Source of the DNA: an uncultured Lachnospiraceae bacterium
GTDB lineage: Bacteria > Bacillota > Clostridia > Lachnospirales > Lachnospiraceae
DNA: 55,672 nucleotides
Reading direction: 5' to 3'
Assembly: GCA_902796355.1 (NCBI GenBank)
Contig: CADBOU010000101.1
Span: 1 to 55,672, forward strand
Made by a program: the position numbers and the translations under genes. The notes beneath the pieces were generated by a model. That model was given only the letters and a program-made list of their open reading frames with translations. It did not search any database and had not been told where the DNA came from. Of the stretch, positions 20,309 through 38,460 are shown in pieces. Position 1 is the first letter of the stretch. Each line of letters opens with the position of its first letter.

Positions 20309-21853
20309 ATGCCTAAAAAACCGACTGTTCTTATGATACTTGATGGATACGGACTGCGTAAGGAGACGCATGGCAATGCGATAGCTTTGGCAGATACGCC
20401 TGTTGTCGACAGATTAAAAAAAGAGTATCCGTTTGTAAAAGGATATGCCAGTGGACTGGCTGTGGGACTTCCTGACGGTCAGATGGGAAATTCAGAAGTG
20501 GGGCATCTTAATATGGGCGCAGGGCGCATCGTCTATCAGGACCTGACGAAGATTTCCAAAGCGATTGCTGATGGAGATTTTTTTGAGAATCCCGAACTTC
20601 TTCGCGCATGTAAAAATGCTAAAGATAATGACAGTGCACTGCATCTTTACGGACTTGTCTCTGATGGCGGCGTACATTCCCATCAAGAGCATTTATACGG
20701 ACTGCTGGAATTGGCAAAACGTCAGAATCTGACAAAAGTGTTCATTCACTGTTTCATGGATGGCAGGGATACACCTCCTGAGTCCGGAAAAGGATATGTC
20801 GAAGAACTGGAAGAAAAATGTCAGGAAATCGGTGTCGGAGAGATTGCCTCTGTCGCGGGACGTTATTATGCTATGGATCGTGATAACAGATGGGAGCGCA
20901 CACAGAAGGCATATGATGCACTGACAAAAGGAATCGGAGAGACTGCGTTATCAGGACATGAAGCGATGCAAAACTCGTATGATGCCGGTACGACAGATGA
21001 ATTTGTTCTGCCAACGGTTATCACGGATAAGAACGGCGCTCCTGTAGCAACGATAAAAAATAACGATTCCATTATTTTCTTTAATTTCAGGCCGGATCGC
21101 GCCCGGCAGATTACGCGTTGCTTTTGCTGTGATGATTTTGACGGATTTGAGCGCGGAAAACGCATAGAGACAACATATGTATGTTTCACAGATTATGATG
21201 CGACGATACCAAATAAAACGGTTGCCTTTCCAAAAGAGGAGATTGTTAATACGCTGGGAGAGTACATATCCTCTCTGGGTATGACGCAGGCTAGAATTGC
21301 TGAAACAGAGAAATATGCTCATGTGACATTTTTCTTTAATGGCGGAGTTGAAAAGCCCAATCCAGGCGAAGACCGTTTTCTGATTCCCTCACCAAAGGTA
21401 GCCACATATGATCTCCAGCCTGAGATGAGTGCATACGGAGTATGTGATAAATTGTGCGAAGCCATTCACTCATGCCAATATGATGTGATTATCATTAACT
21501 TCGCTAACTCGGATATGGTTGGCCATACAGGAGTGCTTGCAGCGGCAATTAAAGCGGTTGAAGCAGTTGATGAGTGTGTTGGCAAAACAGTAGAGGCGGT
21601 AAAGGAAGTCGGTGGTCAGATGTTCCTCTGTGCTGATCACGGTAATTCCGACATGATGATCGATGAAGAAAGCGGTGAACCTTTTACCGCTCATACGACA
21701 AATCCGGTACCGTTTATTCTCATCAATGCAGACCCCCAATACAAATTGCGTGAAGGCGGGAAACTTGCTGATATTGCACCGACGCTGCTGGAGCTGATGG
21801 GAATCCCGCAGCCGGCAGAAATGACTGGAGAATCACTCTTGATTCAATCATAG
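20309..21853 (+). CDS. gpmI: 2,3-bisphosphoglycerate-independent phosphoglycerate mutase
   Basis: [16 protein letters not shown]-terminus, [23 protein letters not shown] 20309 sits behind GAAGGAGA. The track start at 20225 runs through the terminator. Confidence 0.95.
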
Positions 21854-21900
21854 TCTCTCAATGCATCCCAGACATCCTGACGGAATCGTTCTCGATGCAG

Positions 21901-21956
21901 AAAAAACAGGCGGTGCATAAGAGCCCAAAATACGGGTTCTAAGCACCGTCGTTTTT
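21901..21956. terminator. Long imperfect hairpin terminator between convergent gpmI and the Mo-hydroxylase operon
   Basis: AAAAAACA-GGCGGTGC..-loop-..GCACCGTC-GTTTTT: an A-run upstream and a T-run downstream, so it could act in both directions. Confidence 0.5.
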
Positions 21957-22023
21957 CTGCTTCCGCCCAGAATATCTGAGCTGCATGATAGTTTTTGTCA
22001 TTGAATGATCAAGCTGAGTCCAA

Positions 22024-22602
22024 TTAGGCTTGTACAGTAGGATCAAGCGATGCGAAGGGCTTTCGCTCATCTGTATCTACGATTGCCTGATCATTTACTT
22101 TTTCAGCTTCTTCATATTTACCCAGGCGGCGCAGCATTGTCTTTTTGACCGCCCGGAAAATATTCTCATAACCTGTGCAGCGGCAGAGATGGCCGGAGAG
22201 GAGTTTGCGCAGTTCATCATCTGTGTATTCCTTACCGGTGTTGAGGATTTCCCATGCAGAGAGGATAAATCCCGGTGAACAGAATCCGCACTGGATTGCG
22301 GTTTCATCGATAAATGCCTGCTGGATATCTGATAGTTCTCCGCCGGGGCCCATTAAACCTTCCAGTGTCGTAATGTTTTTACCTTCTGCCCATACAGCCA
22401 GATAAATACAGGAGTCAAAAGCTTCGCCATCGATAATGACAGTACAGGCTCCGCATTCTCCGACTTCACAGCCTTTTTTGACGCTGGTCATACGGTAATC
22501 ATTGCGCAGCATATCTGTGAGAGAAGCGCGTACATCCACATTTTTTTCAGTCGGTTTTCCGTTCAGGGTAAAATGAACTGTTTTATATTTCCGTTCACTC
22601 AT
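22024..22602 (-). CDS. Molybdenum hydroxylase (xanthine dehydrogenase family) [2Fe-2S] small subunit
   Basis: CEVGECGACTV, CGFCSPG and CRCTGY motifs. 192 aa with a tail of about 35 aa. The start overlaps the FAD-subunit stop (ATGA). Confidence 0.9.
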   Translation of the reverse strand: MSERKYKTVHFTLNGKPTEKNVDVRASLTDMLRNDYRMTSVKKGCEVGECGACTVIIDGEAFDSCIYLAVWAEGKNITTLEGLMGPGGELSDIQQAFIDETAIQCGFCSPGFILSAWEILNTGKEYTDDELRKLLSGHLCRCTGYENIFRAVKKTMLRRLGKYEEAEKVNDQAIVDTDERKPFASLDPTVQA

Positions 22603-23483
22603 TTTACGTCACCTCCTGCTTTTTTGATTGATTCGCGCAAGGCTCTCTGAGCCATTACGACAGCCATATGCTCACGGAACTGTTTGCCGCCGCGCCATGA
22701 ATCACGCGGGTTGATATCTTTTAACACCTCTTTACCGAACTGTTCGACATGTTCTTCAGTGATTTCTTTGCCGTTGATATATTCTTCGGCGGAAGGAGCA
22801 CGCATGGGAACTGGTCCTGCGACCCCGTAAGCAATACGAACGCGATCAAAAGTTTTTTTGTCATCGGATAAGCGTACATTCACTGAGCAGCCAATATTGG
22901 CGATCTCGAGGGCATTGCGCTTGCCGTATTTGATGTAATGTCCGAAGCAGTTCTCATAAGAAGATTTTGGAATCAGAATGGCTGTCTGTATTTCTCCCTG
23001 GTGTAAATCAACCGTGCCGGCTTTGATGTAGAAATCTTTGATCGGTTCATAACGAACGCCGTCAGGGCCGGTAATCTCAATGATGGCTTCCCACGCATGA
23101 AGCGTTGAGGCGGAGTCGGCAGAAGTCACACCGTTACAAGTGTTGCCGCCGATAGTGCCGATCGCACGAACCTGCGGTCCGCCGATCATGTTCACGGCTT
23201 CACCGAGAACACCTATCTTTTCCTGAATAATAGGATTCTTAGTGATGTTTGAAAAACTGGTCAGCGAACCGATGCGCACGTTTTCATCTTTATCGATACT
23301 GATGCCACGCAATTCATCAAGCATATAAATGCTTACAAGCTCTTTGCCTGCACGCTTTCCCTCACGAACCTGTACCAGAACATCAGAGCCTCCGGCAATT
23401 ACCTGTGCTTCGGGATGCTCTGTCAAAAGACGGCATGCATCCTGTACGCTTTCAGCTTCATATAAAGCTTTGATATCATACAT
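22599..23483 (-). CDS. Molybdenum hydroxylase FAD-binding medium subunit (CoxM/XdhB-like)
   Basis: 294 aa. AGGSDVLVQ and IGGNTCNG are FAD-binding PCMH-type motifs. The start overlaps the large-subunit stop by 1 nt. Confidence 0.9.
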   Translation of the reverse strand: MYDIKALYEAESVQDACRLLTEHPEAQVIAGGSDVLVQVREGKRAGKELVSIYMLDELRGISIDKDENVRIGSLTSFSNITKNPIIQEKIGVLGEAVNMIGGPQVRAIGTIGGNTCNGVTSADSASTLHAWEAIIEITGPDGVRYEPIKDFYIKAGTVDLHQGEIQTAILIPKSSYENCFGHYIKYGKRNALEIANIGCSVNVRLSDDKKTFDRVRIAYGVAGPVPMRAPSAEEYINGKEITEEHVEQFGKEVLKDINPRDSWRGGKQFREHMAVVMAQRALRESIKKAGGDVK

Positions 23484-25834
23484 CAGTGCTCGCCTCCTTC
23501 CTCTTCAATCAGACCGGCTTCCACATAGTTTTTATACAGGACATCCGGAGAGAGCGGAATTTCATTGATAAAGCATCCAGTTGCCTGTGCAACAGCAGCC
23601 CGTATAGCAGGAGCAACCGGACATACCGGCGGCTCTCCCAGACCTTTGGTGCCGTATGCACTGGTAGGTTCATAGTTTTCAACAAACTCACCGACAAGTC
23701 TTGGATGATCCATGAACGATGACAGTTTATAGTCAAGCAGATTATTGTTCAGCGGACGGCCTGTCTTCTGATCAAACAGGAGCTTTTCTGAAAGGGCATA
23801 ACCGATGCCCATGCTCTGGCCGCCGTGTACCTGTGCCTCTGCAAGAGCCGGGTTGATTACCTGACCGCAGTCATGCACATTGACAATATTGAGCAGACGT
23901 ACACGGCACATCGGAATATCCACCTCGACTTCTGCAAAGCAGCAGCCAAATGAGAACGCATTTGTTTTGATGTGCGCTGTCGTTTCTGATGTCAAATGTA
24001 CACTGTGATCGCGGCTGTAAAGAGCAGTTGTAGCCAGCTCCTTCATACTCATCAGAATGCGGCCGTCTGTTTTACGGACAATGTTGTTGTCTATTATGTC
24101 CATGATATAAGGCTGCATACGTGTCAGTTCATAGGCATATTCAAGAATTCTCTTCTTCATTTCCAGAGCAGTCTTGCGGACTGAAAAACCTAGAGTATAG
24201 GTGCCTCTGGAAGCGTAGACACCGGTACCGAACGGAGTCACATCGGTATCCTGACATGAGACAGTATGGACTTTATCTAATGTCAGGCCGATTGATTCGG
24301 CTGTCATCTGAGCTGCTGCAGTATCAGCGCCCTGACCGATTTCAGTTTCAGCCAGCTGCACCTGAACAGAACCATCCTGATTTAAGACCATTCGACAGGA
24401 TGATGTCTCAAGGGCAATCGGATATACTGCCGTATTGTACCAGAATGTAGCAACGCCGATACCCCGCCGTACATCTCCGGTCTGAGGCTTTTTATACTCC
24501 TCATATTTTTTGGTATATCCGATAGTCTTATCACCTTTATCAAAGCACTGATTGAACGTATCGCTGTACAGCTCATTGCCTGAAAAGGCATGAACAAAAC
24601 CAACCGGCATCAGATTTTTACGCTTAAATTCCAGAGGATCCATGCCGAGCGCTCTGGCACAGTCATCAGCATTTGCTTCCATGGCATAAGAGCCTTGCGG
24701 CATACCGTATCCCCGCATTGCTCCCGCGACAGGCTTGTTGGTAAAAACAGTCCAGGCATCACCTTCTATATTGTCGCAAGGATACAGTTGCGGAAACGCG
24801 TTGAGCGATTTGGCGGCGATCGCATGTCCATGCGATGCGTAGGCACCCTGATCAGCCCACGCTTCATATTTTCTGGCGGCAAAAGTACCGTCTTTCCTTA
24901 AATAAGAAATGATATGGAAGCGCTCACCGTGACGGACACGGTTATTGACAAATGTTTCCTCACGCGGGACATCGATTTTGACAAGACGTCCGCCCAGCTG
25001 CATTGAAAGCCAGACACAGAGCGGTTCGTACAGTGTATCCTGTTTGTTGCCGAAACCACCGCCGACATAGGGCTTGATGACTCTGAATTTGCCCCAGTCC
25101 ATATCGAGAGCCTGCCCGATACAGCGACGTACAATATGAGGAATCTGAGTGGAAGAGTAGCAGACATAGCGGTCATCGCCTTCACCGTATGCAAAGCATT
25201 CGAAGTTCTCGATATGACAGTGCTGAACAGTGGGCACATCATACCAGCCTTCTACCTTAATCAACCCTTCCTCTTTGATTGCTTCTTCGTAATTTCCCTG
25301 ATGAATCTGTGTATGGGCCAGCACATTTCCGGGATAATCCGGATGAAGTAAAGGCGCGTCATCTTTGATGGCGTCATGCACATCCAGAACGAACGGCAGT
25401 TCTTCATATACTACCTTGTCTTTCAGTACGCGTATAGCCTGTGCTGCTGCGATTTCATCTTCAGCGACGACGGCTGCAATATCATCACCGTAATAGAGCG
25501 GATGATCTGTCAGCAACAGTCTGTCTGCGACGTCCTGATGCGAGGGTTCAACAGACCAGGGATGTCCGGGTGTGGGAAAATAATGTCTGGGTACATCAAA
25601 GCATGTGAAAATGCGCACAATGCCGGGGATTTTTTCAGCTTCAGAAGTGTCAATGGATTTGACGATTCCATTGGCTACCGAAGAGTGAAGAATCCGGGTG
25701 CATAATGCGCTTTTGTCACAAAGGTCATCAACATATTTGACACGTCCGATCGCTTTATCATGTGCGTCGAGACGGGTGAAGGATTTCCCTATAATCTTGT
25801 TGCCTACATCGGGATATCCGTTGTCTATGCTCAT
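23483..25834 (-). CDS. Molybdenum hydroxylase molybdopterin-binding large subunit (xanthine dehydrogenase family)
   Basis: GGGFGNKQ, AMRGYGMPQ and GLGEPP motifs. ATG 25834 sits behind AAAGGAGGTGG and is preferred over the track start at 25855, which lies upstream of that SD. Confidence 0.9.
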   Translation of the reverse strand: MSIDNGYPDVGNKIIGKSFTRLDAHDKAIGRVKYVDDLCDKSALCTRILHSSVANGIVKSIDTSEAEKIPGIVRIFTCFDVPRHYFPTPGHPWSVEPSHQDVADRLLLTDHPLYYGDDIAAVVAEDEIAAAQAIRVLKDKVVYEELPFVLDVHDAIKDDAPLLHPDYPGNVLAHTQIHQGNYEEAIKEEGLIKVEGWYDVPTVQHCHIENFECFAYGEGDDRYVCYSSTQIPHIVRRCIGQALDMDWGKFRVIKPYVGGGFGNKQDTLYEPLCVWLSMQLGGRLVKIDVPREETFVNNRVRHGERFHIISYLRKDGTFAARKYEAWADQGAYASHGHAIAAKSLNAFPQLYPCDNIEGDAWTVFTNKPVAGAMRGYGMPQGSYAMEANADDCARALGMDPLEFKRKNLMPVGFVHAFSGNELYSDTFNQCFDKGDKTIGYTKKYEEYKKPQTGDVRRGIGVATFWYNTAVYPIALETSSCRMVLNQDGSVQVQLAETEIGQGADTAAAQMTAESIGLTLDKVHTVSCQDTDVTPFGTGVYASRGTYTLGFSVRKTALEMKKRILEYAYELTRMQPYIMDIIDNNIVRKTDGRILMSMKELATTALYSRDHSVHLTSETTAHIKTNAFSFGCCFAEVEVDIPMCRVRLLNIVNVHDCGQVINPALAEAQVHGGQSMGIGYALSEKLLFDQKTGRPLNNNLLDYKLSSFMDHPRLVGEFVENYEPTSAYGTKGLGEPPVCPVAPAIRAAVAQATGCFINEIPLSPDVLYKNYVEAGLIEEEGGEH

Positions 25835-25958
25835 AGCTCCACCTCCTTTGAACATTTACATATTTATATTTTAAATGAATCACAATAGTAAGTAAATAGC
25901 ACCTGAGCAAAAATTTTTTAATTTACTAAAACTTTTTGCAAAATATTGTTCTGATTCG

Positions 25959-25987
25959 TTGCTTTTTGAATATCAAAATGATAGTAT
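25959..25987 (+). promoter_or_regulatory. Putative promoter of the PLP-enzyme / serCA operon, in the divergent control region shared with the Mo-hydroxylase operon
   Basis: TTGCTT (25959-25964), 17 nt, extended -10 TGATAGTAT (-10 hexamer at 25982-25987). The surrounding 177-bp region is very AT-rich. Confidence 0.3.
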
Positions 25988-26032
25988 GAATCTGTAGAAC
26001 GTTGTTTCTAAACATGAGAAGGAGATGCTTGT

Positions 26033-27502
26033 ATGATATCCCTGAAAAAAAATGAAAAAGCACTTGAACATAACATTGAGAAGGCAAGAGAAAACAATAT
26101 TATCCTGCCGACAATTGCACAGCTGAGAGATCCGAATCTCATTCCCGATTCGATCAAAGAGAAGCTGAAAGATGTCGGCCTGTGGGATATCAATCCGCTC
26201 AATCTTTTCCGGATCACATGGAGAAATGAGCCTAAAGAAAGCGGCGGATTATTCGGCAAACCTAATTATATTGTTTTACCGCCGGAACTGACCGGTGTCA
26301 AAGCCAGAATCATCTGTATGGTTGGAAAATTCTTTCCGACAGGATGCCATAAAGTCGGTGCATCTTACGGATGTCTGATTCCCAGGCTTGTCACAGGACA
26401 GTTTGATTCAACATACAATAAAGCAGTGTGGCCTTCCACAGGAAACTACTGCCGCGGCGGCGCCTTCGATTCCAAACTTCTCGGAGTAGATTCGATCGCC
26501 ATTCTTCCCGCAGAGATGAGTCAGGAGCGTTTTGACTGGCTTAAGTCCATCGCCGGCGAAGTGATTGCGACTCCGGGATGCGAGAGCAACGTCAAAGAGA
26601 TTTTTGACAAAACCTGGGAGCTGCGCGAGACCAGAGATGATGTTGTCATTTTTAATCAGTTTGACGAGATGGGCAACTATATGTGGCATTACAATGTCAC
26701 CGGTACAGCCATCCAGGGCGCTTTTGAAGATATGAAGAAGGATGGGGACCGCTTTGCAGGTGCGATCTTCACATCAGGTTCAGCCGGAACGATGGCCTCT
26801 GGTGATTATCTGAAGCAGCAGTATCCGGGATTGAAGCTCGGTGTTGGTGAAGCACTTCAGTGCCCGACACTGCTTGACAACGGTTTTGGCGGCCACCGTA
26901 TTGAAGGCATTGGCGATAAGCATGTACCGTGGATTCACAATGTCAAGAATACGGACCTGGTTGTCGACATTGATGACGAAGATTCCCAGAGACTGATTCG
27001 CTTCATGAATGAGCCGGTTGCCCGTGAATACCTGAAGAAGGAACGCGGTGTAGATCCTGCACTTGTCGATGTCCTTGATTACTTCGGTATTTCCGGCATT
27101 GCCAACATGCTTTGCGCGATTAAGATGGCCAAGTACTATGAGATGGATGAGCACGATGTCATCGCAACAGTTATGACTGACTCTGCACAGATGTATCAGT
27201 CCCGTATCCAGGAGCTTGTCGATCAGGATGGCGAGTACACACCGGTGATGGCTGCAGTTGACTATGAGAAGCATCTGCTTGGCCAGAGCACTGACAATAT
27301 GCTTGAGCTGCGCTACACAGACCGCAAGAGGATCCACAACCTCAAGTATTACACATGGATTGAGCAGCAGGGACGTGAGATCCAGGATCTGAATGATCAG
27401 TGGTATGATTTTGAGAAAGCATGGGGATCAGTCCAGAAGCAGGCTGACGAGATCGACGGCCTGATTAATGAGTTTAACGAGAGAACAGGTCTTCTCAAGT
27501 AA
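26033..27502 (+). CDS. Long fold-type-II (TrpB/CysK-like) PLP-dependent enzyme of unknown specificity; possibly OrtB-like PLP-dependent lyase/thiolase
   Basis: 489 aa behind GAAGGAGA. FPTGCHKVGAS resembles the TrpB HTGAHK PLP-lysine motif (Lys107, codon 26351-26353). Gly-rich FTSGSAGT loop. No small OrtA-like partner ORF is nearby. Family assignment is from memory only. Confidence 0.55.
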   Translation: MISLKKNEKALEHNIEKARENNIILPTIAQLRDPNLIPDSIKEKLKDVGLWDINPLNLFRITWRNEPKESGGLFGKPNYIVLPPELTGVKARIICMVGKFFPTGCHKVGASYGCLIPRLVTGQFDSTYNKAVWPSTGNYCRGGAFDSKLLGVDSIAILPAEMSQERFDWLKSIAGEVIATPGCESNVKEIFDKTWELRETRDDVVIFNQFDEMGNYMWHYNVTGTAIQGAFEDMKKDGDRFAGAIFTSGSAGTMASGDYLKQQYPGLKLGVGEALQCPTLLDNGFGGHRIEGIGDKHVPWIHNVKNTDLVVDIDDEDSQRLIRFMNEPVAREYLKKERGVDPALVDVLDYFGISGIANMLCAIKMAKYYEMDEHDVIATVMTDSAQMYQSRIQELVDQDGEYTPVMAAVDYEKHLLGQSTDNMLELRYTDRKRIHNLKYYTWIEQQGREIQDLNDQWYDFEKAWGSVQKQADEIDGLINEFNERTGLLK

Positions 27503-27538
27503 TCCGAAACGTGTTATTATTTTAACAGAGGCGAAAGA

Positions 27539-28777
27539 ATGAAAAATGTGATTTCAGCTGTCTGCGTCGAATGCGGCGCAGAGTATGAAGCAACTCCGGG
27601 AACGACAGTATGTAAAAAATGCGGCGGTATTCTTGATATCAAATATGATTATCAATATATCAAGAATCACATTTCAAAAGAAGAAATGGCCGACAGGCGT
27701 GAGAATTCCATGTGGCGTTACAAGGAATTCCTCCCCGTGGAAGGGATTGGCAAACGGCCGAAACTTCGTGTCGGCTGGTCACCGTTCTACCATGCTGTCC
27801 ATTTGGAAGAGCTTCTGGGCGTGAAAGAGCTCTATGTCAAAGATGACGGGATTAATCCAACATCCAGTTTGAAAGACCGTGCATCGGCGATGGCTGTTGT
27901 CAAGGCGGAGGAGGCAGGCGTTGACACAATCTGCTGCTCATCCACCGGTAACGCGGCTTCATCGCTCGCCGGTAATGCTGCAGCTGCCGGATTTAAGACG
28001 TACATCTTTGTCCCCTCACGTGCGCCAAAGGGAAAAGTGTCACAGCTTTTAAACTTCGGTGCGACTGTCATGAGCGTGGAAGGCTCTTATGAAGAGACTT
28101 TCAATATGTCTGCCATCGCGATCGACAGATACGGGTGGTATAACCGCAATGCAGCAATCAATCCCTATCTGATGGAAGGGAAAAAGACAGTGGCTCTGGA
28201 AATTGCTGAGCAGCTTGGATGGAAGATGACAGACTATGTGGCACTTTCAGTCGGTGATGGCTGTACGATTGCCGGTGTCTGGAAAGGCTTTAAGGATCTC
28301 TATGCTGCCGGCTTTATTGACAGATTGCCGCGGCTCATTTCTGTTCAGGCAGAAGGGTGCTGCCCGCTCAACAAGGCGATCGCCGAGGATAAACCCTGGG
28401 AGCCCATGGAGGAAAACACAATCGCTGACAGCATCGCTGTCGGCGTTCCCCGCAATGCAACCAAAGCACTCAACGCAATCCGGGAGTCAAACGGCGTGGT
28501 CGTGAATGTCTCTGACCAGGAGATTCTTGATGCGATGAAACTGCTTGGCCGTACCTGCGGTGTGTTTGGGGAACCGGCCGGTGTCGCCGGGACAGCCGGA
28601 CTTAAAAAAGCTGTGGAGCAGGGACTTGTGCCTAAGGACGCCTCGTTCGTTTCCATTGTCACTGGAAACGGCTTGAAGGATGTCGTGAATGCAATCAAAG
28701 CGGCCGGAGAGCCGATCAGTCTTAAACCGGATAAAGATTTGCTGCTACAGACATTCAGAAAACTTGGTGTGGAGTAG
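27539..28777 (+). CDS. Threonine-synthase-family PLP enzyme with N-terminal zinc ribbon (divergent active-site motifs)
   Basis: 412 aa. CVECG...CKKCGG ribbon, PLP-lysine motif NPTSSLKDRAS, SSTGNAASS loop and TGNGLKD near the C-terminus. The overall pattern resembles archaeal-type short ThrC. Confidence 0.7.
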   Translation: MKNVISAVCVECGAEYEATPGTTVCKKCGGILDIKYDYQYIKNHISKEEMADRRENSMWRYKEFLPVEGIGKRPKLRVGWSPFYHAVHLEELLGVKELYVKDDGINPTSSLKDRASAMAVVKAEEAGVDTICCSSTGNAASSLAGNAAAAGFKTYIFVPSRAPKGKVSQLLNFGATVMSVEGSYEETFNMSAIAIDRYGWYNRNAAINPYLMEGKKTVALEIAEQLGWKMTDYVALSVGDGCTIAGVWKGFKDLYAAGFIDRLPRLISVQAEGCCPLNKAIAEDKPWEPMEENTIADSIAVGVPRNATKALNAIRESNGVVVNVSDQEILDAMKLLGRTCGVFGEPAGVAGTAGLKKAVEQGLVPKDASFVSIVTGNGLKDVVNAIKAAGEPISLKPDKDLLLQTFRKLGVE

Positions 28778-28808
28778 TTATGTTTAAAAACACAAAGGAG
28801 GAACCACA

Positions 28809-29900
28809 ATGTTAGAAGGAAGAATTTATAACTTTTCAGCCGGTCCGTCTATTTTGCCGGAACCTGTTTTACTGAGAGTTCAGAAAGAACTGCTGAACTG
28901 TGAAGGCTCTGGCATGTCTGTGATGGAGATGAGCCACAGATCAAAAGTCTTTGACAAGATCATTAATGACTGTCAGGCTAATCTGCGCAAGCTGTTAGGT
29001 ATTCCGGACAACTATAAAGTCCTCTTTCTTCAGGGCGGCGCCAGCGGCATTTTTGCTGCACTCCCGATGAACCTCGCTGCAAAGAGCAAGAAAGCTGATT
29101 ATCTTGTCAGCGGCAACTTCTCTAATCAGGCTCTCAAAGAAGCTAAAAAGTATCTGGGAGACGGCGCACAGTGTGCCGGATCTACTGAAGATATCAACTA
29201 CACCCGCGTTCCGACGCAGGATGAATTAAAGCTTGATCCGGATGCAGCTTATGTACATATGTGTTACAACAACACTATTTTTGGTACAAAATGGCATTAT
29301 GATCCCGAGACAGGAAATGTCCCGCTGATTGCCGATATGTCATCCTGTATCCTTTCTGAACCGATCGATGTCAGCCGTTATGGTGCAATTTACGGCGGCG
29401 TTCAGAAGAATATGGCACCGGCTGGATTTGCCTTTGTGGCAATCCGCGAAGATCTGATCGGTGATGAGATGGACATTACACCGAAGATCTGGAGCTTTGA
29501 GAAGCAGGCTGATAAGAATTCAATGATTAACACACCTCCGTGCTGGTCTATCTATGTATGTAACTGCGTTCTCGAGTATCTGCTGGAGATCGGCGGCCTG
29601 GAGGAGATGAAGAAACGCAACGAAAAGAAAGCGGCTCTTCTCTATGACTATCTTGATTCTCAGGACTTCTACAAGCCCGCTGCAGAAAAGATCGACCGCT
29701 CTATGATGAACGTCACGTTCAGAACCGGCGATGATGAGCTCGACAAAGCCTTTGTTGCAGGATCAGCTGACAAAGGATTCTCAAACCTGAAGGGACATCG
29801 TCTGGTTGGCGGTATGCGTGCATCAATCTACAATGCGATGCCGTATGAAGGTGTAGAGGCACTTGTCGATTATATGAAAGAATTTGCAAAAGCGCACTAA
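28809..29900 (+). CDS. serC: Phosphoserine aminotransferase
   Basis: 363 aa. FSAGPS N-terminus and PLP-lysine motif GGVQKNMAPAG. Strong SD AAAGGAGG. Confidence 0.9.
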   Translation: MLEGRIYNFSAGPSILPEPVLLRVQKELLNCEGSGMSVMEMSHRSKVFDKIINDCQANLRKLLGIPDNYKVLFLQGGASGIFAALPMNLAAKSKKADYLVSGNFSNQALKEAKKYLGDGAQCAGSTEDINYTRVPTQDELKLDPDAAYVHMCYNNTIFGTKWHYDPETGNVPLIADMSSCILSEPIDVSRYGAIYGGVQKNMAPAGFAFVAIREDLIGDEMDITPKIWSFEKQADKNSMINTPPCWSIYVCNCVLEYLLEIGGLEEMKKRNEKKAALLYDYLDSQDFYKPAAEKIDRSMMNVTFRTGDDELDKAFVAGSADKGFSNLKGHRLVGGMRASIYNAMPYEGVEALVDYMKEFAKAH

Positions 29901-29918
29901 TACAGGAGGAACGTAAGA

Positions 29919-30830
29919 ATGGTAAAAGTACTTGCCACTGACGGCATGGCAAAAAGCGCCGTTGATGAATTAAAGAACAAAGGTTACGAAGTCATTGAGC
30001 AGCATTATGAGCCCGACGAACTTTGCGAAGCAGTCAAAGATGTCGATGTCATTGTTGTCCGCTCAGCGACTAAAGTGCGTGAGCCGATTATTGATGCTGC
30101 AGCTGAGGCTGGCAGATTAAAGATGATTATCCGCGGCGGTGTCGGTGTTGACAATATCGATGTTGCCTATGCACAGGACAAAGGAATTGAAGTGCGCAAT
30201 ACACCTGCTGCATCCAGTGCTTCTGTTGCCGAGCTGACACTTGGACACATGTTTGCTCTGGCCCGCTTCATCGGCATCTCCAACTATACGATGCGTGAAG
30301 GAAAGTGGGAGAAGAAAGCGTATAAAGGTACTGAGCTCGGCGGTAAGACACTCGGACTGATTGGCATGGGCCGCATTGCCCGTGAGCTTGCAAAGCGCGC
30401 AGAAGCGATCGGCATGAAGATTATGTACACCGATATCTTTGAGATTAAAGGCCTTCCGGATTCTTATGTAAAATCCACAAAAGAAGAGATTCTCAAGGAA
30501 GCTGATTATGTGTCACTCCATATTCCGATGCCGGCTGATAAGAAACCTGTTATCACAGCTGAAGACCTTGCCACAATGAAGCCGTCAGCATTTATCCTCA
30601 ATCTTGCCCGTGGCGGCCTCATTGACGAAGATGCACTGTGTGATGCGCTTGACGAGGGCAAGCTTGCCGGAGCAGCGTTGGATGTCTATGCAACTGAGCC
30701 GGCATCCAATGAGCGGATTCTCTCCAACCCGAAGATTTCCATGACACCGCATATCGGCGGGTCTACAAAAGAAGCACAGGATCGTATCGGAGAAGAGATC
30801 TGCAAGCATATCTACGATAAGTTCGAGTAA
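29919..30830 (+). CDS. serA: D-3-phosphoglycerate dehydrogenase, short form without ACT domain (D-2-hydroxyacid dehydrogenase family)
   Basis: 303 aa. NAD-binding GLIGMGRIARELA, and the catalytic Arg/Glu/His context (LARGG ... TPHIGGST). Adjacent to serC. Confidence 0.8.
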   Translation: MVKVLATDGMAKSAVDELKNKGYEVIEQHYEPDELCEAVKDVDVIVVRSATKVREPIIDAAAEAGRLKMIIRGGVGVDNIDVAYAQDKGIEVRNTPAASSASVAELTLGHMFALARFIGISNYTMREGKWEKKAYKGTELGGKTLGLIGMGRIARELAKRAEAIGMKIMYTDIFEIKGLPDSYVKSTKEEILKEADYVSLHIPMPADKKPVITAEDLATMKPSAFILNLARGGLIDEDALCDALDEGKLAGAALDVYATEPASNERILSNPKISMTPHIGGSTKEAQDRIGEEICKHIYDKFE

Positions 30831-30843
30831 TTCATGAGTTTAA

Positions 30844-30883
30844 AACAAGATGGCTTGCGTGCTTGCACGGCAAGCCACTTGTT
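30844..30883 (+). promoter_or_regulatory. Stable stem-loop after serA (processing / attenuation site candidate)
   Basis: AACAAGaTGGCTTGC-loop-GCAAGCCACTTGTT: about 14 bp with a 1-nt bulge. No T-run follows, so it is not a classical terminator. Confidence 0.4.
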
Positions 30884-30945
30884 CTTAAGAAACAGAACAG
30901 ATATATTTTCAAATTTAATAACGCAGATGCAAAGGAGGGTGCACC

Positions 30946-32268
30946 ATGAAATACGATTGGAAAGATTTTGGACTGCATATTCCGCAGATCATGCTCCCGA
31001 AAGAGGGGACAGATTACAGTAAATGGGCTGTTGTGGCTTGTGATCAATTCACATCCCAGCCTGATTACTGGGAACAAACGGAAGCAATCGTAGGGGATGC
31101 AGCCTCCACTTTGCGTTTAATGCTGCCTGAATTCTATTTAGGAAGTGATACAGAAGAGCAGCGGATCGCTGATGTGCGTAAAGCGATGGATACCTATATG
31201 AGTGACGGAACGCTGCGGACACTTGAGTCCGGATGTATTCTGGTACGCCGCGAGGCAGAGGGCAGAAGCAGACTGGGGTTGGTGATCTGTGTTGATCTCG
31301 AATCATATGATTACAACAAAGGCTCTCAGTCATTGATCAGAGCGACAGAGGGAACTGTCATCGAACGGATTCCGCCGCGCCTGCGTATCCGCCGCGGTGC
31401 GCCGCTTGAGATGCCTCATATCATAATTTTAATCGACGATCCGAAACATACAGTCATCGAGCCACTTGAGAAGCTGGATCTGGAATGTGTCTACGACACC
31501 GATTTAATGCAAGAGGGCGGCCATGTGACAGGTCATTTTATTCCGGAGACACAACTGGAGGAAATGAAACAGGCTCTATCTGATCTGATGGATGAGGCGA
31601 TATCAAGATACGGAGAAGGGCATGTCATTTTCCAGGCTATGGGTGACGGCAATCATTCTCTTGCCACAGCAAAAGCTGCCTGGGAAGAGATCAAGAAAGA
31701 CTTAACCCCGGAACAGATTGAGCAGCATCCTGCACGGTTTGCGCTTTGTGAAATCGAGAATGTGTATGATCCGGGGATTGTCTTCGAACCGATTCATCGC
31801 GTTGTTTTTGCCGCAGAAGATCTGGCCGGTAAGGATTTAATGGATCAGTTGGTTGAATTGCTTGCTGAACAAAACGGCGGTGCAGCTTTCATTCCGGCAG
31901 AAGCAGATCAGGATGATGCACATGCTGCCGGTGACGGTTTTGTCATTGATGCTATGTATGAAGGAACAGAGGGGAAATTGGTCATAGACGGACCATGCAC
32001 CTCAAAACTAGCTGTTGGAACTTTGCAGAATGCTATCGATGTTCTGGTGAAAGATCATGGGGCTTCGGTAGATTATATTCATGGAGAAGCTGCGGTACGC
32101 GAGCTGGCTTCAAAAGGAGGCAATCTTGGATTCCTTCTTCCGGCCATGGATAAATTCCAGCTCTTTCCTGCTGTCGCTGCAGATGGGGCGCTTCCGCGCA
32201 AGACATTCTCTATGGGTGAAGCTAATGAAAAACGATACTATATTGAATCACGCAGTTTAATGGTTTGA
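30946..32268 (+). CDS. DUF1015-like protein of unknown function
   Basis: 440 aa behind AAAGGAGGG. WAVVACDQFTSQPDYWE and GLVICVDLESYDY...IRATEGTVIERIPPRLRIRRG match my recollection of the DUF1015 core (HE-T...DR region). This family is typically found next to serA/serC. Confidence 0.6.
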   Translation: MKYDWKDFGLHIPQIMLPKEGTDYSKWAVVACDQFTSQPDYWEQTEAIVGDAASTLRLMLPEFYLGSDTEEQRIADVRKAMDTYMSDGTLRTLESGCILVRREAEGRSRLGLVICVDLESYDYNKGSQSLIRATEGTVIERIPPRLRIRRGAPLEMPHIIILIDDPKHTVIEPLEKLDLECVYDTDLMQEGGHVTGHFIPETQLEEMKQALSDLMDEAISRYGEGHVIFQAMGDGNHSLATAKAAWEEIKKDLTPEQIEQHPARFALCEIENVYDPGIVFEPIHRVVFAAEDLAGKDLMDQLVELLAEQNGGAAFIPAEADQDDAHAAGDGFVIDAMYEGTEGKLVIDGPCTSKLAVGTLQNAIDVLVKDHGASVDYIHGEAAVRELASKGGNLGFLLPAMDKFQLFPAVAADGALPRKTFSMGEANEKRYYIESRSLMV

Positions 32269-32304
32269 TGAGATAAGTCGCTAGAGAGAGGAGGATGATA
32301 ACCG

Positions 32305-33636
32305 ATGTTGTTAGTTGGTAACGGCAAAATGATCACACGCGATGATGCACATATGTTTTATGCCGACGGAGCGGTGGTGATCGACGGTAAAAAGATCAAA
32401 GAGGTAGGGGAGACAGAAGCACTCAGAAAAGCCTATCCGGATGCGGAGTTTATCGATGCCAAAGGCGGCGTCATCATGCCTGCATTCATTAATATGCATG
32501 AACATATCTACAGTGCACTCGCACGCGGGCTGTCAATCAACGGCTATAATCCGAAGGGGTTTCTTGATATCCTTGACGGTCAGTGGTGGACTATTGATCG
32601 CCATCTGAATAATGCCAGAACCAAGGCATGTGCTTATGAAACACTGATCTCCTGTATCAAGAGCGGTGTGACAACCGTATTTGACCATCATGCCAGCTAT
32701 GGAGAGATCCGTGATTCTCTTTTTGCGATCGAGGATGTTGTGAAAGATCTCGGTATGCGTGCTTGTCTGTGTTATGAAGTATCTGATCGCGACGGCAAAG
32801 AGAAATGCATGGATGGCATCTTGGAAAACGAGGCATTCATTAAACATGCCCAGGAAGATGATTCGGACATGATTGCCGGTATGTTCGGTATGCATGCTCA
32901 GTTTACGATATCAGATGAAACCATGGAAGAGTGCCTGAAGCATACTCCTGATGGCGCCGGATATCATATTCACGTAGCTGAGGGTATTGAAGATCTGCAT
33001 GCCTGCTTAAAGGATCATTCAAAACGGATTGTCGACCGTTTGTATGACTGGGGAATTCTCGGGCAGAAATCTCTGCTGGGACATTGCATCTATATCAACC
33101 CTCATGAGATGGATCTGATCAAAGAAACAGACACTATGGTGGTCCATAATCCGGAGTCCAATATGGGCAATGCCTGCGGATGTCCGCCCACCATGGAGCT
33201 TGTTCACCGCGGGATTCTGACCGGACTTGGCACTGATGGATACACCCACGATATGATTGAATCATGGAAGGTTGCCAATGTTCTTCATAAGCATCATCTG
33301 TGTGATCCAAATGCTGCATGGGGAGAGGTTCCGGAGATGCTGTTCAAGAATAACGCCGCTATGGCAGGACGTTATTTCGATGCGCAGCTCGGTGTCCTCA
33401 AAGAAGGGGCGGCTGCAGATGTCATCATTATGGACTACAATCCGCCGACAGAGATGAATGAGAATAACGTCAATGGACATATTTTGTTCGGCATGATGGG
33501 ACATGACTGCGTCACCACGATCTGTAACGGGCAGATCCTGATGAAAGACCGCAGAATCAAGGTTGTTGATGAAGAGAAGATTTATGCGGATATCCGTGAG
33601 AAGGCCGCTGATCTGTGGACAAGCATTAACGGTTGA
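32305..33636 (+). CDS. ssnA: SsnA-like amidohydrolase (putative aminohydrolase of the chlorohydrolase/guanine-deaminase superfamily)
   Basis: 443 aa. Metal motif NMHEHIYS, then WWTIDR, KSGVTTVFDHHAS, YHIHVAE, VHNPESNM and GLGTDG. The pattern and length match E. coli SsnA as I recall it. Confidence 0.75.
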   Translation: MLLVGNGKMITRDDAHMFYADGAVVIDGKKIKEVGETEALRKAYPDAEFIDAKGGVIMPAFINMHEHIYSALARGLSINGYNPKGFLDILDGQWWTIDRHLNNARTKACAYETLISCIKSGVTTVFDHHASYGEIRDSLFAIEDVVKDLGMRACLCYEVSDRDGKEKCMDGILENEAFIKHAQEDDSDMIAGMFGMHAQFTISDETMEECLKHTPDGAGYHIHVAEGIEDLHACLKDHSKRIVDRLYDWGILGQKSLLGHCIYINPHEMDLIKETDTMVVHNPESNMGNACGCPPTMELVHRGILTGLGTDGYTHDMIESWKVANVLHKHHLCDPNAAWGEVPEMLFKNNAAMAGRYFDAQLGVLKEGAAADVIIMDYNPPTEMNENNVNGHILFGMMGHDCVTTICNGQILMKDRRIKVVDEEKIYADIREKAADLWTSING

Positions 33637-33651
33637 TTAAAGGAGGCTGAC

Positions 33652-36639
33652 ATGAGTGATCTTATGACTTGTATGCCGTTTGGGCATATTATGAATTGGA
33701 TTCAAAGAGAGAAGAAAGAGAGCGGCACCATTTTTGGTGTTCATAAATTCTACAAGGCCGAAGGCGACGCACCGCTGACAATCTTTGAGCGTCCGCTTGA
33801 GACAGAGATCGGACCGGCAGCCGGCCCGAACTCGCAGCTTGCCCAGAATATCATTGCTTCATATGCAGCCGGAGCCAGGTTTTTTGAGTTGAAAACCGTA
33901 CAGCAGATGGATGGCCGCGAGCTGGCAGCCTGTGTTAACAAGCCGTGCATCAAAGCGGAAGATGAATGCTATAACTGCGAATGGTCTACAGAGCTGACGC
34001 TTCCGGAGGCTCAGGAGGAGTATATCAAAGCGTGGTTTGCACTCCATGTTCTGGCGAAAGAATACGGTATGGGATTGGCAGACGGTTTCCAGTTTAACAT
34101 CAGTGTCGGATATACACTTGACGGTATTAAAACAGAAAAGGTGACCACCTTTGTCAACAACATGATGCAGGCTAAGGATACGGATATCTTTAAGGAATGC
34201 AAAGCATATCTCCTTGATCATATCGATGAGTTTGAGCATCTGACCAAAGAAGATGTTGAAGCGATCCCCTCTGATATCTGTAATTCAGCAACGATCTCAA
34301 CCCTGCATGGATGTCCTCCCAATGAGATTGAGAGCATTGCCAATTATCTGATTCTGGAGAAGCATCTGCATACGTTTATCAAATGCAATCCAACTCTTCT
34401 CGGATATGATTTTGCGAGAGAGACACTGGATAAACTCGGCTTTGATCAGCTGGTATTCGGTGCTTTCCACTTTAATGATGATCTGCAGTACAATGACGCA
34501 GTTCCGATGCTGCAGCGCCTGATGAAGCTTGCTGACGAGCAGGGACTGCAGTTCGGTGTCAAGCTGACCAACACATTCCCGGTGGATGTCCGCAGAAACG
34601 AACTGCCTGCCGAAGAGATGTACATGGCTGGTAAATCCCTCTATCCGCTGACAATCAATCTGGCGGCTAAGCTATCCAATGATTTTGACGGCAAACTGCG
34701 TATCGCATTCTCAGGCGGTGCTGAGTACTTTAATATCGACAAAATTGTCGGATGCGGCATCTGGCCTGTCACAATGGCGACCACACTCCTTAAGCCGGGC
34801 GGCTATAACCGTTTTGAGCAGATGGTTGAGAAGCTGAACACTCTTCCCAGAAAAGAGTGGGACGGCATTGATCTTGATGCGCTCAATACGCTGGCAAAAG
34901 AGGCGCTTTCTGATCCGCATCACACCAAGGCTGTTAAACCGGCACCGTCACGCAAAATTGATGATCCTGTACCGCTCACCAATTGCTTTATGGCCCCGTG
35001 TGAGGCAGAGTGCCCGATCCATCAGGATATTGCAACTTACATGAAACTGGCCGGAGAAAACCGCTATGACGATGCGTTGCGTGTCATTCTGGAGCGCAAT
35101 GCACTTCCGTTTATCACCGGTACAATCTGCGCACATCCCTGCCAGGGCGCCTGTACACGTAATTTCTACGAGACACCTGTACAGATTCGCGATACGAAGC
35201 TTAAATGCGCTGAGGCGGCATTTGAGAAGGTTCTGGATGAAGTAAAAGTGCGCGGCGAATGCGGCTTAAGTGCAGCTGTTGTCGGCGGCGGTCCTGCTGG
35301 TATGGCGGCAGCTTATTATCTTGCACGGGCAGGTGTGAAAGTCACATTGTTTGAGAAGGAAGATAAGCTTGGCGGTATTGTCAGCAAGGTCATTCCTGAT
35401 TTCAGAATTGATCAGTGTGCTATCGACAAGGATGCTGAGCTCTTACAGAAACTCGGCGTCGATATTCAACTTGGAACAGAGGCACCGGCTGTTGCTGAAT
35501 TGAAAGAGAAGTTTGATGCGGTTGTTCTCGCAGTCGGCGCATCCAAGAGAAGCACTCTTGTGCTGGATGACAAGAAGGCTGTTAACGCACTTGACTTCCT
35601 TGAGGAGTTTAACGCCAAGAAGGGAGAAGTCGATCTTGGTAAGCATGTCGTCGTGATTGGAGGCGGCAACACAGCGATGGATACGGCACGTGCAGCCAAA
35701 CGCTGCAGCGGAGTAGAGGAAGTCGATCTGGTATACCGCCGCTCAAAACGCTATATGCCTGCAGATGAACATGAGCTTCTCCTTGCGGTAGAAGACGGGG
35801 TCGTCTTTAAAGAGCAGCTTGCGCCGTTTAAGATGGAAGATGGCGCTATCATTTGTCATGTCACGAAACTTGGTGAACCGGATGCATCAGGCCGCGCCGG
35901 CGTCATTGAGACTGACGAGGAAGTGTGTCTCAAAGCCGATACGGTTATTGCAGCCATTGGCGAGAAGGTCCCGGGAGATTATTATGATGCTGCCGGCCTT
36001 AAGACTGATGAAAAAGGCCGTCCGGTTGTCGATGCGGCAACGACAAAAGCAGCTGACGGAATCTATGTCATCGGTGACGGACTGTATGGACCAAAGCTTG
36101 TCGTCACTGCAATGCAGCAGGCGATGGCAGCGGCTGCGGACATCATCAGTTCAGATGTAGCCGGTGATGTGGCAGAAAAAGCAGATGAACATAAGACAAT
36201 TCGCAAGAAGGGCATCCTCTGCGAGCCGGATCCGGCTGTCAACGAAGGGGATCGATGCCTGTCATGCTCGACAATCTGCGAAAACTGTGTTGATGTCTGC
36301 CCGAATAGAGCCAATAAGTGCATTAAGGTTCCGGGACTTCCCATGGCTCAGATCCTTCACGTGGATTACATGTGCAATGAATGCGGTAACTGTGAGACTT
36401 TCTGCCCATACAGCAGTGCTCCGTACAAAGACAAATGGACGCTGTACAAGAATGAAGAAGAGTTCGCAGACAGCGAAAACAACGGCTTCCTTGTACTTGA
36501 TGCCGCAGCCCATAAGATCAAAGTCCGTAAGGGCGAGTGCATTTGCGAGGGAGAGACTGGCGACTGTGAATGCCTTACAAAAGAAGATAAGATGCTGATC
36601 GAAGCAGTGATCGATGATTACAGTTATCTGATCCTGTAA
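33652..36639 (+). CDS. ygfK: YgfK-like multidomain Fe-S flavoprotein oxidoreductase
   Basis: 995 aa. N-terminal DPD/DHOD-like TIM-barrel region. GltD-like Cys clusters (CFMAPCEAECP, CAHPCQGAC). Two dinucleotide folds (VVGGGPAGMAAAYYLARAG, VVIGGGNTAMD). C-terminal 2x[4Fe-4S] ferredoxin motifs (CLSCSTICENCVDVCP, CNECGNCETFCP). Confidence 0.8.
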   Translation: MSDLMTCMPFGHIMNWIQREKKESGTIFGVHKFYKAEGDAPLTIFERPLETEIGPAAGPNSQLAQNIIASYAAGARFFELKTVQQMDGRELAACVNKPCIKAEDECYNCEWSTELTLPEAQEEYIKAWFALHVLAKEYGMGLADGFQFNISVGYTLDGIKTEKVTTFVNNMMQAKDTDIFKECKAYLLDHIDEFEHLTKEDVEAIPSDICNSATISTLHGCPPNEIESIANYLILEKHLHTFIKCNPTLLGYDFARETLDKLGFDQLVFGAFHFNDDLQYNDAVPMLQRLMKLADEQGLQFGVKLTNTFPVDVRRNELPAEEMYMAGKSLYPLTINLAAKLSNDFDGKLRIAFSGGAEYFNIDKIVGCGIWPVTMATTLLKPGGYNRFEQMVEKLNTLPRKEWDGIDLDALNTLAKEALSDPHHTKAVKPAPSRKIDDPVPLTNCFMAPCEAECPIHQDIATYMKLAGENRYDDALRVILERNALPFITGTICAHPCQGACTRNFYETPVQIRDTKLKCAEAAFEKVLDEVKVRGECGLSAAVVGGGPAGMAAAYYLARAGVKVTLFEKEDKLGGIVSKVIPDFRIDQCAIDKDAELLQKLGVDIQLGTEAPAVAELKEKFDAVVLAVGASKRSTLVLDDKKAVNALDFLEEFNAKKGEVDLGKHVVVIGGGNTAMDTARAAKRCSGVEEVDLVYRRSKRYMPADEHELLLAVEDGVVFKEQLAPFKMEDGAIICHVTKLGEPDASGRAGVIETDEEVCLKADTVIAAIGEKVPGDYYDAAGLKTDEKGRPVVDAATTKAADGIYVIGDGLYGPKLVVTAMQQAMAAAADIISSDVAGDVAEKADEHKTIRKKGILCEPDPAVNEGDRCLSCSTICENCVDVCPNRANKCIKVPGLPMAQILHVDYMCNECGNCETFCPYSSAPYKDKWTLYKNEEEFADSENNGFLVLDAAAHKIKVRKGECICEGETGDCECLTKEDKMLIEAVIDDYSYLIL

Positions 36640-36661
36640 ATTCACAGGTTTTATCGTTGTT

Positions 36662-36693
36662 GAAGCCGCAGCTACCTTAGCTGCGGCTTTTTC
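36662..36693 (+). terminator. rho-independent terminator after ygfK
   Basis: GAAGCCGCAGCT-acctt-AGCTGCGGCTT followed by TTTT. Confidence 0.7.
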
Positions 36694-36729
36694 ATTTATT
36701 TAAAAAACACCTCTTTACGGGAACACTTT

Positions 36730-36756
36730 AGTATGCTACTATGGTATAGCATTACT
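36730..36756 (+). promoter_or_regulatory. Imperfect inverted repeat (operator candidate) overlapping a weak promoter upstream of the amino-acid ABC operon
   Basis: AGTATGCTA-n8-TAGCATTACT, which needs a one-nt bulge. Candidate -35 TTTACG (36714-36719) and -10 TACTAT (36737-36742), 17-nt spacing. Confidence 0.25.
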
Positions 36757-36803
36757 ACGGTACTGTATTACTAAGCTAATATACTTATAAAGGAGATTAC
36801 ATT

Positions 36804-37643: not shown

Positions 37644-37685
37644 TGACAGACTTCAGTTAAGATGGCTGTTCTGATATAAGGATTG

Positions 37686-37735
37686 AATACAGCCGCTGCC
37701 GCCGAATCCTAAGGTGAGGCCGGCGCGGCTGTATT
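37686..37735 (+). promoter_or_regulatory. Intra-operon stem-loop after the binding-protein gene
   Basis: AATACAGCCGC ... GCGGCTGTATT: an 11-bp perfect stem around a GC-rich 28-nt loop, between the SBP stop (37643) and the permease start (37769). Confidence 0.4.
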
Positions 37736-37768
37736 ACTGTAAATATTTTCAAATCATGAGGTAAAAAG

Positions 37769-38416: not shown

Positions 38417-38460
38417 TCGCGTTGTAATAACTTATCTTGTTTGAAGGAGATTAACACACG

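Follow-up and report, generated by a model that had tools for sequence, protein, structure and literature searches.

The closest described counterpart of the locus reported here is the end of the reductive urate (2,8-dioxopurine) pathway, which was described in 10.1101/2025.05.19.654654 and 10.1101/2025.04.24.650524; SsnA opens the ring, and albizziin (3-ureido-alanine), a compound with a free alpha-amino group, is a demonstrated intermediate (10.1101/2025.05.19.654654). The terminal enzyme is YgeX/DpaL (EC 4.3.1.15): pyruvate is formed in E. coli and C. sporogenes, 2,3-diaminopropionate (DAP) accumulates in ygeX mutants, and the published reconstitutions use YgeX. The pathway was worked out only in 2025 and is pursued for urate-lowering probiotics and for an understanding of urate disposal in the gut. 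Here, we analyzed a stretch of 55,672 nucleotides from an uncultured Lachnospiraceae bacterium (contig CADBOU010000101.1 of assembly GCA_902796355.1; hereafter the window) in which two adjacent genes, G1 and G2, encode fold-type-II pyridoxal phosphate (PLP) enzymes of 489 and 412 amino acids, respectively. We propose, with a probability of roughly 0.6, that G1 and G2 form a conserved two-enzyme PLP module of anaerobic reductive urate/purine degradation that acts at or beside the YgeX step. In this reading the pair is an alternative terminal module of the known pathway, and what we observe here is its coexistence with YgeX, the presence of G2 only where G1 is present, a four-position signature and a tree that set G2 apart, and the structural placement of G1.

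Distribution and gene neighbourhood of the pair

Like YgeX/DpaL, G1 and G2 are fold-type-II PLP enzymes, occur in the YgeW/YgeY/carbamate kinase/SsnA/YgfK neighbourhood, and are distributed in a manner complementary to YgeX; unlike YgeX/DpaL, they belong to another subfamily, are two enzymes rather than one, and coexist with YgeX in this genome. Against the YgeX model NF006058 (cut-off 276), G2 scored 50.3 bits and G1 gave no match. The comparison comprised 54 genomes that encode SsnA or a protein closely resembling it; related genomes among them are not independent. In a class sample of 20 SsnA-positive genomes that were at least 90% complete, 14 had YgeX only and six the pair only, while a family sample of 26 SsnA-positive genomes comprised 20 with YgeX only, two with the pair only, and four with both. 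Five further genomes with G1 or a G1-like gene, an adjacent G2, and a divergent SsnA-like gene, and three genomes with stand-alone G1 and G2 beside SsnA, all had the pair only. In total, 34 genomes had YgeX only, 16 the pair only, four both (all from the family sample), and none neither, documenting that YgeX and the pair are phyletically complementary. Approximately 30% of the sampled SsnA-bearing genomes (16/54) therefore have no YgeX, the published last enzyme, and carry the pair instead; for this reason, many urate degraders will be missed or misjudged when ygeX is counted in metagenomes.

Of 150 other genera in the family, five had G1 and 25 had a true SsnA (above cut-off); G1 was found in five of the 25 SsnA-positive genomes and in none of the 125 others (hypergeometric probability ~9e-5, ignoring relatedness). 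Four of these five G1 genomes had a G2 orthologue. At three of the five loci G1–G2 abut ssnA-ygfK-(hydantoinase)-xdh, and in a fourth genome G1 and ssnA lie on one contig. More generally, G1 was present in 19/19 genomes with a G2 orthologue and G2 was never found without G1, while three genomes had G1 without G2. The Lachnospiraceae genome G092 has G1-serC-DUF1015 (contig C4) and no G2, and encodes YgeX twice, with one copy in divergent orientation to G1; in genomes G553 and G554, a lone G1 lies near genes for GNAT, FtsW, and xylose-isomerase-like TIM-barrel proteins.

In the window genome, YgeX (522 bits on NF006058) is encoded on the 3.3-kb contig C94, and YgeY, a YheO-like PAS-HTH regulator, and a fragment of YgeW lie at the end of the 7-kb contig C102, from which we conclude that the purine island is split over at least three contigs. 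In two relatives, a single cluster holds carbamate kinase-YgeW-YgeY-YgeX-YheO followed by G1-G2-permease-SsnA-YgfK-Xdh. We considered that YgeX might be a pseudogene in genomes bearing both and rejected this idea: what appeared as an in-frame stop in genome G020 is the regular stop codon of the gene, located where the match ends.

With a five-sequence alignment of G1 as query, at least 597 loci were found in species-representative genomes, and both proteins are strongly constrained, with at least 60% identical relatives in different phyla. We kept 80 loci, all with at least 60% identity to G1, added the five from the family sample, and clustered the neighbours at the resulting 85 loci, which come from many phyla. 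G2 was a neighbour at 42 loci, and at seven more it was masked by shadow open reading frames (ORFs). The other recurrent neighbours were carbamoyltransferases (31/85; YgeW in Bacillota and elsewhere ornithine carbamoyltransferase (OTC)-like proteins, often in tandem), Mo-hydroxylase subunits (26/85), carbamate kinase (23/85), YgeY (21/85), SsnA (18/85), hydantoinase (17/85), YgfK (13/85), a YheO-type PAS-HTH regulator (13/85), often just upstream of G1, and YgeX (5/85). The neighbour families u456 and u491 were discarded as shadow ORFs opposite YgeY and G2. Based on co-location and co-occurrence, G1 and G2 belong to the 2,8-dioxopurine gene neighbourhood. Genes of serine metabolism also occur here: serC, in part with serA and DUF1015, follows G1 in the window and at three other Bacillota loci (4/85), and in a Synergistaceae metagenome-assembled genome a gene for serine hydroxymethyltransferase (SHMT; NF000586, 642 bits; L069:4183-5457) separates G2 from G1 and follows two YgeY genes.

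We note that at loci outside Bacillota, carbamoyltransferase-like genes replace the knotted YgeW, often in the absence of YgeY; nine loci of Chloroflexota, Bipolaricaulota, and Thermotogota carry one or two OTC- or N-acetylornithine-carbamoyltransferase-like genes. This suggests that outside Bacillota both ureido groups are phosphorolysed. In addition, one 1000-residue protein (P0396, six member sequences) carries a domain like that of the SsnA amidohydrolase at residues 19-362 and a complete G1 at residues 520-995; the fusion may be real and would then link G1 to ring opening. Four proteins that combine half of G1 with CarB domains (P0398-P0401) look like gene-calling artefacts and were set aside.

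Sequence and structure of the two proteins

G2 resembles threonine synthase, and annotation pipelines will go on labelling it as such. Its AlphaFold2 (AF2) model (pLDDT 89.2) had ThrC structures as top Foldseek matches (TMt 0.90; 2ZSJ, 6CGQ), its identity to solved ThrC structures is 34-38%, and it scored above the cut-off of the general thrC model TIGR00260 (214 versus 167) and just under that of the nearest equivalog NF006050 (301 versus 303). The fold, the PLP lysine, and the PLP-binding loops are common to G2 and ThrC (2ZSJ, 6CGQ, 1UIM). G2 differs from short-form ThrC in the replacement of four active-site positions, a Gln-to-Lys change, and an N-terminal zinc ribbon (CxxC...CxxC; C9, C12, C25, C28), and in that its gene always neighbours G1 and purine genes and never encodes the sole ThrC.

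The PLP lysine of G2 lies in SSLKDRA and the loop reads NAAINPYLMEGKKT; in the alignment, the loop is NPY-L-M-EGKKT compared to NPY-R-I/L-EGQKT in the solved ThrC of Aquifex and B. subtilis. We aligned the window G2 with 42 G1-adjacent homologues (39-83% identity) from Bacillota, Chloroflexota, Bacteroidota, Synergistota, Spirochaetota, and other phyla, and found one motif signature common to 43/43 aligned sequences and to three further orthologues from genome matches. Compared to canonical short ThrC, the motifs of which were read from two sequences of the same class, the G2 clade has PT(A/S)S(L/F)KDRAS rather than PTGSFKDRGM around the PLP lysine, STGNA rather than STGNT in the substrate loop, NRN(A/T)xxNPx(L/M/T)xEGKKT rather than NS-xNxYR(L/I)EGQKT in the phosphate loop, and VGDG rather than VGNAGN in the PLP-phosphate loop. 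The clade-wide replacements are T to A, S to A/T, R to L/M/T, and N to D, in addition to Gln to Lys. The replaced Thr, Ser, Arg, and Asn are residues that we take to surround the phosphate of O-phosphohomoserine in ThrC complexes. A branch with 98/95 support in a maximum-likelihood tree separates the 46 G2 sequences from four ThrC or ThrC-like sequences, which include two canonical short ThrCs.

The source genome (1.53 Mb, 86% complete) encodes a canonical ThrC of 498 amino acids on contig C13 (TIGR00260, 224.8 bits) and homoserine dehydrogenase (hom) on contig C70, and four other pair-bearing genomes retain a canonical 350-residue short ThrC beside G2. Because a canonical ThrC is encoded elsewhere and the motif replacements are clade-wide, G2 is, judged from its sequence, not the threonine synthase of this organism and is predicted not to use O-phosphohomoserine. 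The sequence-only reading had voiced the same doubt from the Arg-to-Leu change, and the doubt is borne out: the change is one of four clade-wide replacements, the position being L, M, or T in G2 and 45 clade members while canonical ThrCs keep R, and a canonical thrC, which it proposed to look for elsewhere in the genome, is present.

Cysteate synthase offers a precedent for a ThrC scaffold turned to three-carbon beta-replacement. That enzyme uses the phosphate ester O-phosphoserine, whereas G2 is without the presumed phosphate contacts, and G2 scored 94 bits against the cysteate synthase model TIGR03844 (cut-off 325).

G1 scored below the cut-off of Pfam PALP (32.8 versus 35 bits), its best NCBIfam match was the cysK model TIGR01139 (82 versus 351) followed by TIGR01136 (79 versus 344), and the SbnA model TIGR03945 gave 32 bits (cut-off 350). 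By these scores G1 appears to fall outside every curated family; the database names of its distant relatives are all generic and the family of a stored homologue is unnamed. Its AF2 model (pLDDT 95.5, pTM 0.94) has a core that superposes on CysK, CBS, beta-cyanoalanine synthase, Fn1220, CapA1, CmnB, and SbnA (VIA-align Z 30-36), with Z of 34-36 for CysK-type structures and 31-33 for the DAP-forming SbnA and CmnB; Foldseek gave a TMt of ~0.83 at ~23% identity. K107, the STGN loop, Q209/F210, H219, and the GSAGT loop align with catalytic and PLP-binding elements of CysK, and among 31 homologues K107 is nearly invariant while H219, T223, and N358 are invariant.

G1 has in common with CysK/CysM/CBS and SbnA/CmnB the core fold (~300 residues aligned, Z 30-36), the STGN loop that binds the carboxylate, the QF...H motif, and a PLP-phosphate loop rich in glycine. 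It differs from all of them in its ~20-25% identity and scores far below all curated cut-offs, in the TrpB-like lysine context (C/A)HKVGA, and in ~75 N-terminal and ~100 C-terminal extra helical residues. Conservation of these extensions (residues ~1-75 and ~390-489) reaches across phyla, and no solved chain aligned with them. On the basis of the model, G1 is predicted to be a CysK/CBS/SbnA-like aminoacrylate enzyme.

Possible roles of the pair

Because the four presumed phosphate-contacting positions are replaced, G2 would no longer take a phosphate ester. We suggest that the pair acts where the pathway ends in three-carbon compounds, on DAP or, less likely, on its mono-ureido precursor albizziin. 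G2 would remove or replace the beta-amino (or ureido) group of this substrate, and the addition of water at C-beta, the native skill of ThrC, would yield serine. G1 would carry out aminoacrylate chemistry on the G2 product or on a serine-node metabolite, such that G2 feeds G1; this placement of G1 at a serine node fed by G2 is the weakest link of the argument. As to substrate, products, and order of steps, we infer that the pair most likely serves the disposal of DAP, perhaps via serine. Catabolism of a ring-opened purine product was among the functions raised in the sequence-only reading and is favoured by the neighbours, the co-occurrence with SsnA, and the complementarity to YgeX; phosphoserine, raised there as well, is not favoured as a substrate of G2, in which the arginine and three neighbouring presumed phosphate contacts are lost.

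Several points weigh against a module at the YgeX step. YgeX alone suffices for the conversion of DAP to pyruvate, which leaves the need for two enzymes unexplained, and neither of the two 2025 pathway papers needs or mentions a threonine-synthase-like or second PLP enzyme. The window genome and three relatives have YgeX too, such that the pair and YgeX cannot simply be equated; because both coexist here, the pair is no mere duplicate and simple replacement does not fit this genome. Moreover, kinship among the genomes makes the counts overstate significance. Genomes G553 and G554 (completeness not established) have G1 while no G2, SsnA, or YgeX was found in them, from which it follows that G1 is not bound to the pathway in every case. 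Two proteins that could have been read as G2-G1 fusions (P0394 and P0395) have unalignable Arg/Ala/Gly-rich junctions typical of frameshifted high-GC DNA and were rejected, and the RNA-library contigs that span junctions of the gene run in the window (see below) may include DNA carry-over. The 2022 cluster paper, too, makes no mention of a threonine-synthase-like or second PLP enzyme, and a literature search for threonine synthase together with the uric-acid cluster found no publication on the pair.

An alternative reason for two enzymes may be stereochemistry. The D-hydantoinase route may deliver a D-form, which would need a racemase together with a lyase or, alternatively, two stereospecific lyases. 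YgeX accepts both D- and L-DAP.

A more specific version of a module at the YgeX step is a two-step alternative exit in which G2 converts DAP to serine and G1 processes a serine-node product. We hold this version tentatively and consider it possible though rather unlikely. It would explain that G2 never occurs without G1, that G1 can occur alone, that serC-serA or SHMT genes are adjacent, and that YgeX coexists with the pair. If true, purine carbon would enter serine/glycine/one-carbon or cysteine metabolism rather than go straight to pyruvate. With both reactions defined, the map of the pathway would be complete, it would be clear whether serine is an exit for purine carbon, and the substrates of the ThrC scaffold would be extended by a new class.

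The genes that directly follow the pair invite an anabolic reading, in which G1, possibly with G2, would use O-phosphoserine or serine from SerA-SerC-DUF1015 for a beta-replacement leading to cysteine, selenocysteine, or a DAP derivative, and the linkage to purine genes would reflect co-regulation, for example, in the supply of sulfur or selenium to Mo-hydroxylases. serC, serA, and DUF1015 are each present as a single copy in this genome, which makes them its housekeeping genes as well; the O-phosphoserine users CysM, O-phosphoserine sulfhydrylase, SbnA, CmnB, and CapA1 are among the structural neighbours of G1; and the two genomes with G1 and without purine genes fit an anabolic role. However, the linkage to serC/serA is restricted to the four loci mentioned above, which come from a few related Bacillota, while catabolic genes predominate among the conserved neighbours (carbamoyltransferase, carbamate kinase, YgeY, SsnA, and hydantoinase). 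Moreover, an anabolic role does not predict the complementarity to YgeX, with 0/54 genomes having neither, G2 is without the presumed phosphate-contacting residues, and ordinary CysK-like genes are present elsewhere in the genome. We consider an anabolic role improbable.

We regard as no more probable that the pair acts one step earlier, by a beta-elimination or replacement on albizziin that would yield urea or carbamate together with pyruvate or serine and bypass YgeY and YgeX. In favour of this, albizziin is a demonstrated intermediate with a free alpha-amino group, the structural matches of G1 include O-ureido-L-serine synthase, a CysK-family enzyme with a ureido substrate, the Lys that replaces Gln in G2 (EGKKT) could bind a carbonyl or carboxylate, and a parallel branch would fit the coexistence with YgeX. 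Yet, clusters with only the pair keep YgeY, carbamoyltransferase, and carbamate kinase, and the Chloroflexota clusters keep two carbamoyltransferases; because these are retained, the PLP step seems to come after the removal of both ureido groups. Also, albizziin explains the complementarity to YgeX no better than DAP as substrate.

That the ordinary annotation is correct, with G2 as a threonine synthase and G1 as a cysteine-synthase-type enzyme in an operon for amino-acid biosynthesis that just happens to neighbour purine genes, is very improbable. The match of G2 to TIGR00260, its identity to solved ThrC structures, and the public records that call its relatives threonine synthase are what one would expect in this case; the score under the cut-off of the nearest equivalog, the canonical ThrC in its own and in other pair-bearing genomes, and the clade-wide replacement of the presumed phosphate-contacting positions are not. 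In addition, neither hom nor thrB lies near G1–G2, and within the family sample G1 and G2 are confined to 5/150 genera, all SsnA-positive, which is not a housekeeping pattern.

Least probable of all is that G1 is, in line with the resemblance noted in the sequence-only reading, an OrtB-like PLP thiolase/lyase that cleaves a beta-keto amino acid with CoA: its length and TrpB-like lysine context are similar to what we take to be those of OrtB (~470-490 amino acids), and in another genome a distant G1-like gene (459 amino acids, 31% identity) is followed by an ORF of 115 amino acids, but the locus in the window has no OrtA-sized partner, ornithine-fermentation genes were found at 0/85 loci, and in fold and conserved loops G1 corresponds to beta-replacement enzymes that form aminoacrylate. 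The distant gene (genome G217, L103:6431-8202, minus strand) has a sodium-dependent transporter adjacent to it and the 115-residue ORF has no family match; together they might be an OrtA/OrtB-type relative.

Organization of the locus and neighbouring genes

Table 1 Features of the window at and around G1 and G2
Feature	Position	Strand	Basis or remark
xdhCBA, Mo-hydroxylase Fe-S, FAD, and Mo subunits	22024-25855	-	NF043082, NF043083, NF043084, all above cut-offs; divergent from G1
Divergent intergenic region, xdhA to G1	25856-26032	.	177 bp, 25% GC versus 46% for the window
G1, fold-type-II PLP enzyme	26033-27502	+	CysK/CBS/SbnA-like core, conserved helical N- and C-terminal extensions; putative Schiff-base K107 (codon 26351-26353)
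G2, zinc-ribbon ThrC-like PLP enzyme	27539-28777	+	PLP lysine K112 (27872-27874)
G2 clade-specific replacements	28169-28171 (L211)		A139, A205, L211, K215, D240
serC, phosphoserine transaminase	28809-29900	+	TIGR01364, 484.8 (cut-off 443.6)
serA, short phosphoglycerate dehydrogenase, ACT-less	29919-30830	+	NCBIfam/Pfam
DUF1015 protein	30946-32268	+	PF06245, 200.7 bits; often linked to serC-serA
ssnA, ring-opening amidohydrolase of the 2,8-dioxopurine pathway	32305-33636	+	NF005540, 667.7 (cut-off 444)
ygfK, 2,8-dioxopurine reductase	33652-36639	+	TIGR03315, 1287 (cut-off 835)
Strong intrinsic terminator	36662-36690	+	sole strong one on the plus strand after G1
D-hydantoinase/dihydropyrimidinase (HyuA-type)	40116-41648	+	TIGR02033, 552 (cut-off 393); pathway gene

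The gap between G1 and G2 is 36 nt, and the gaps in the plus-strand run are 15-36 nt with the exception of 115 nt before DUF1015 (Table 1). G1-G2-serC-serA-DUF1015-ssnA-ygfK are probably a seven-gene operon that is divergent from xdhABC and ends at the strong terminator behind ygfK. The 177-bp region is bounded by the start of G1 and, on the opposite side, by the start of xdhA at 25855 on the minus strand. It has consensus promoter-like matches on both strands, which are weak evidence, and no match to Rfam, nor was any Rfam family found in 21800-37000. What the sequence-only reading had described at this locus is present: the ORFs and their lengths, PTGCHKVGAS in G1, the SSLKDRA, zinc-ribbon, and loop motifs of G2, the AT-rich region between the pair and the Mo-hydroxylase operon, and serC-serA directly after the pair, as supported by the TIGR01364 and NCBIfam matches. 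Likewise, no OrtA-sized ORF lies between or beside G1 and G2, in agreement with its remark that an OrtA-like small subunit is lacking.

Gut metagenomes of goats, sheep, and bovines contain the window stretch. In two studies, RNA libraries from the ruminant gut yielded contigs, with a 95-100% match, that span the G1-G2 junction (27454-27890), the G2-serC junction (28534-28857, 28585-28838, and 28714-29913), and the serC-serA junction (29544-29960). These contigs are compatible with co-transcription and are no proof of it, a contig not being equal to a single transcript; for the remaining parts of the operon, the absence of coverage by such contigs is no sign of silence.

Past ygfK, the window encodes an ABC importer with a CntK-like racemase, followed by the D-hydantoinase and an XdhC-type maturation factor. 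The racemase (276 amino acids, 39219-40049, plus strand) has a DapF fold and scored 139 bits on NF033599, below the cut-off. Its gene overlaps the stop of the ATPase gene of the amino-acid importer (importer region 36804-39219) and directly precedes the D-hydantoinase gene. The enzyme could racemise an amino acid of the pathway such as DAP or albizziin.

The window genome also encodes five further XdhA-like large-subunit paralogues (contigs C112, C30, C9, C164, and C72) with 27-30% identity to the XdhA of the window. One of them may be the XdhD/DOPDH-type urate reductase, which the window itself lacks. Finally, an ORF of 578 amino acids (18492-20228, plus strand) lies just upstream of the convergent xdhCBA genes.

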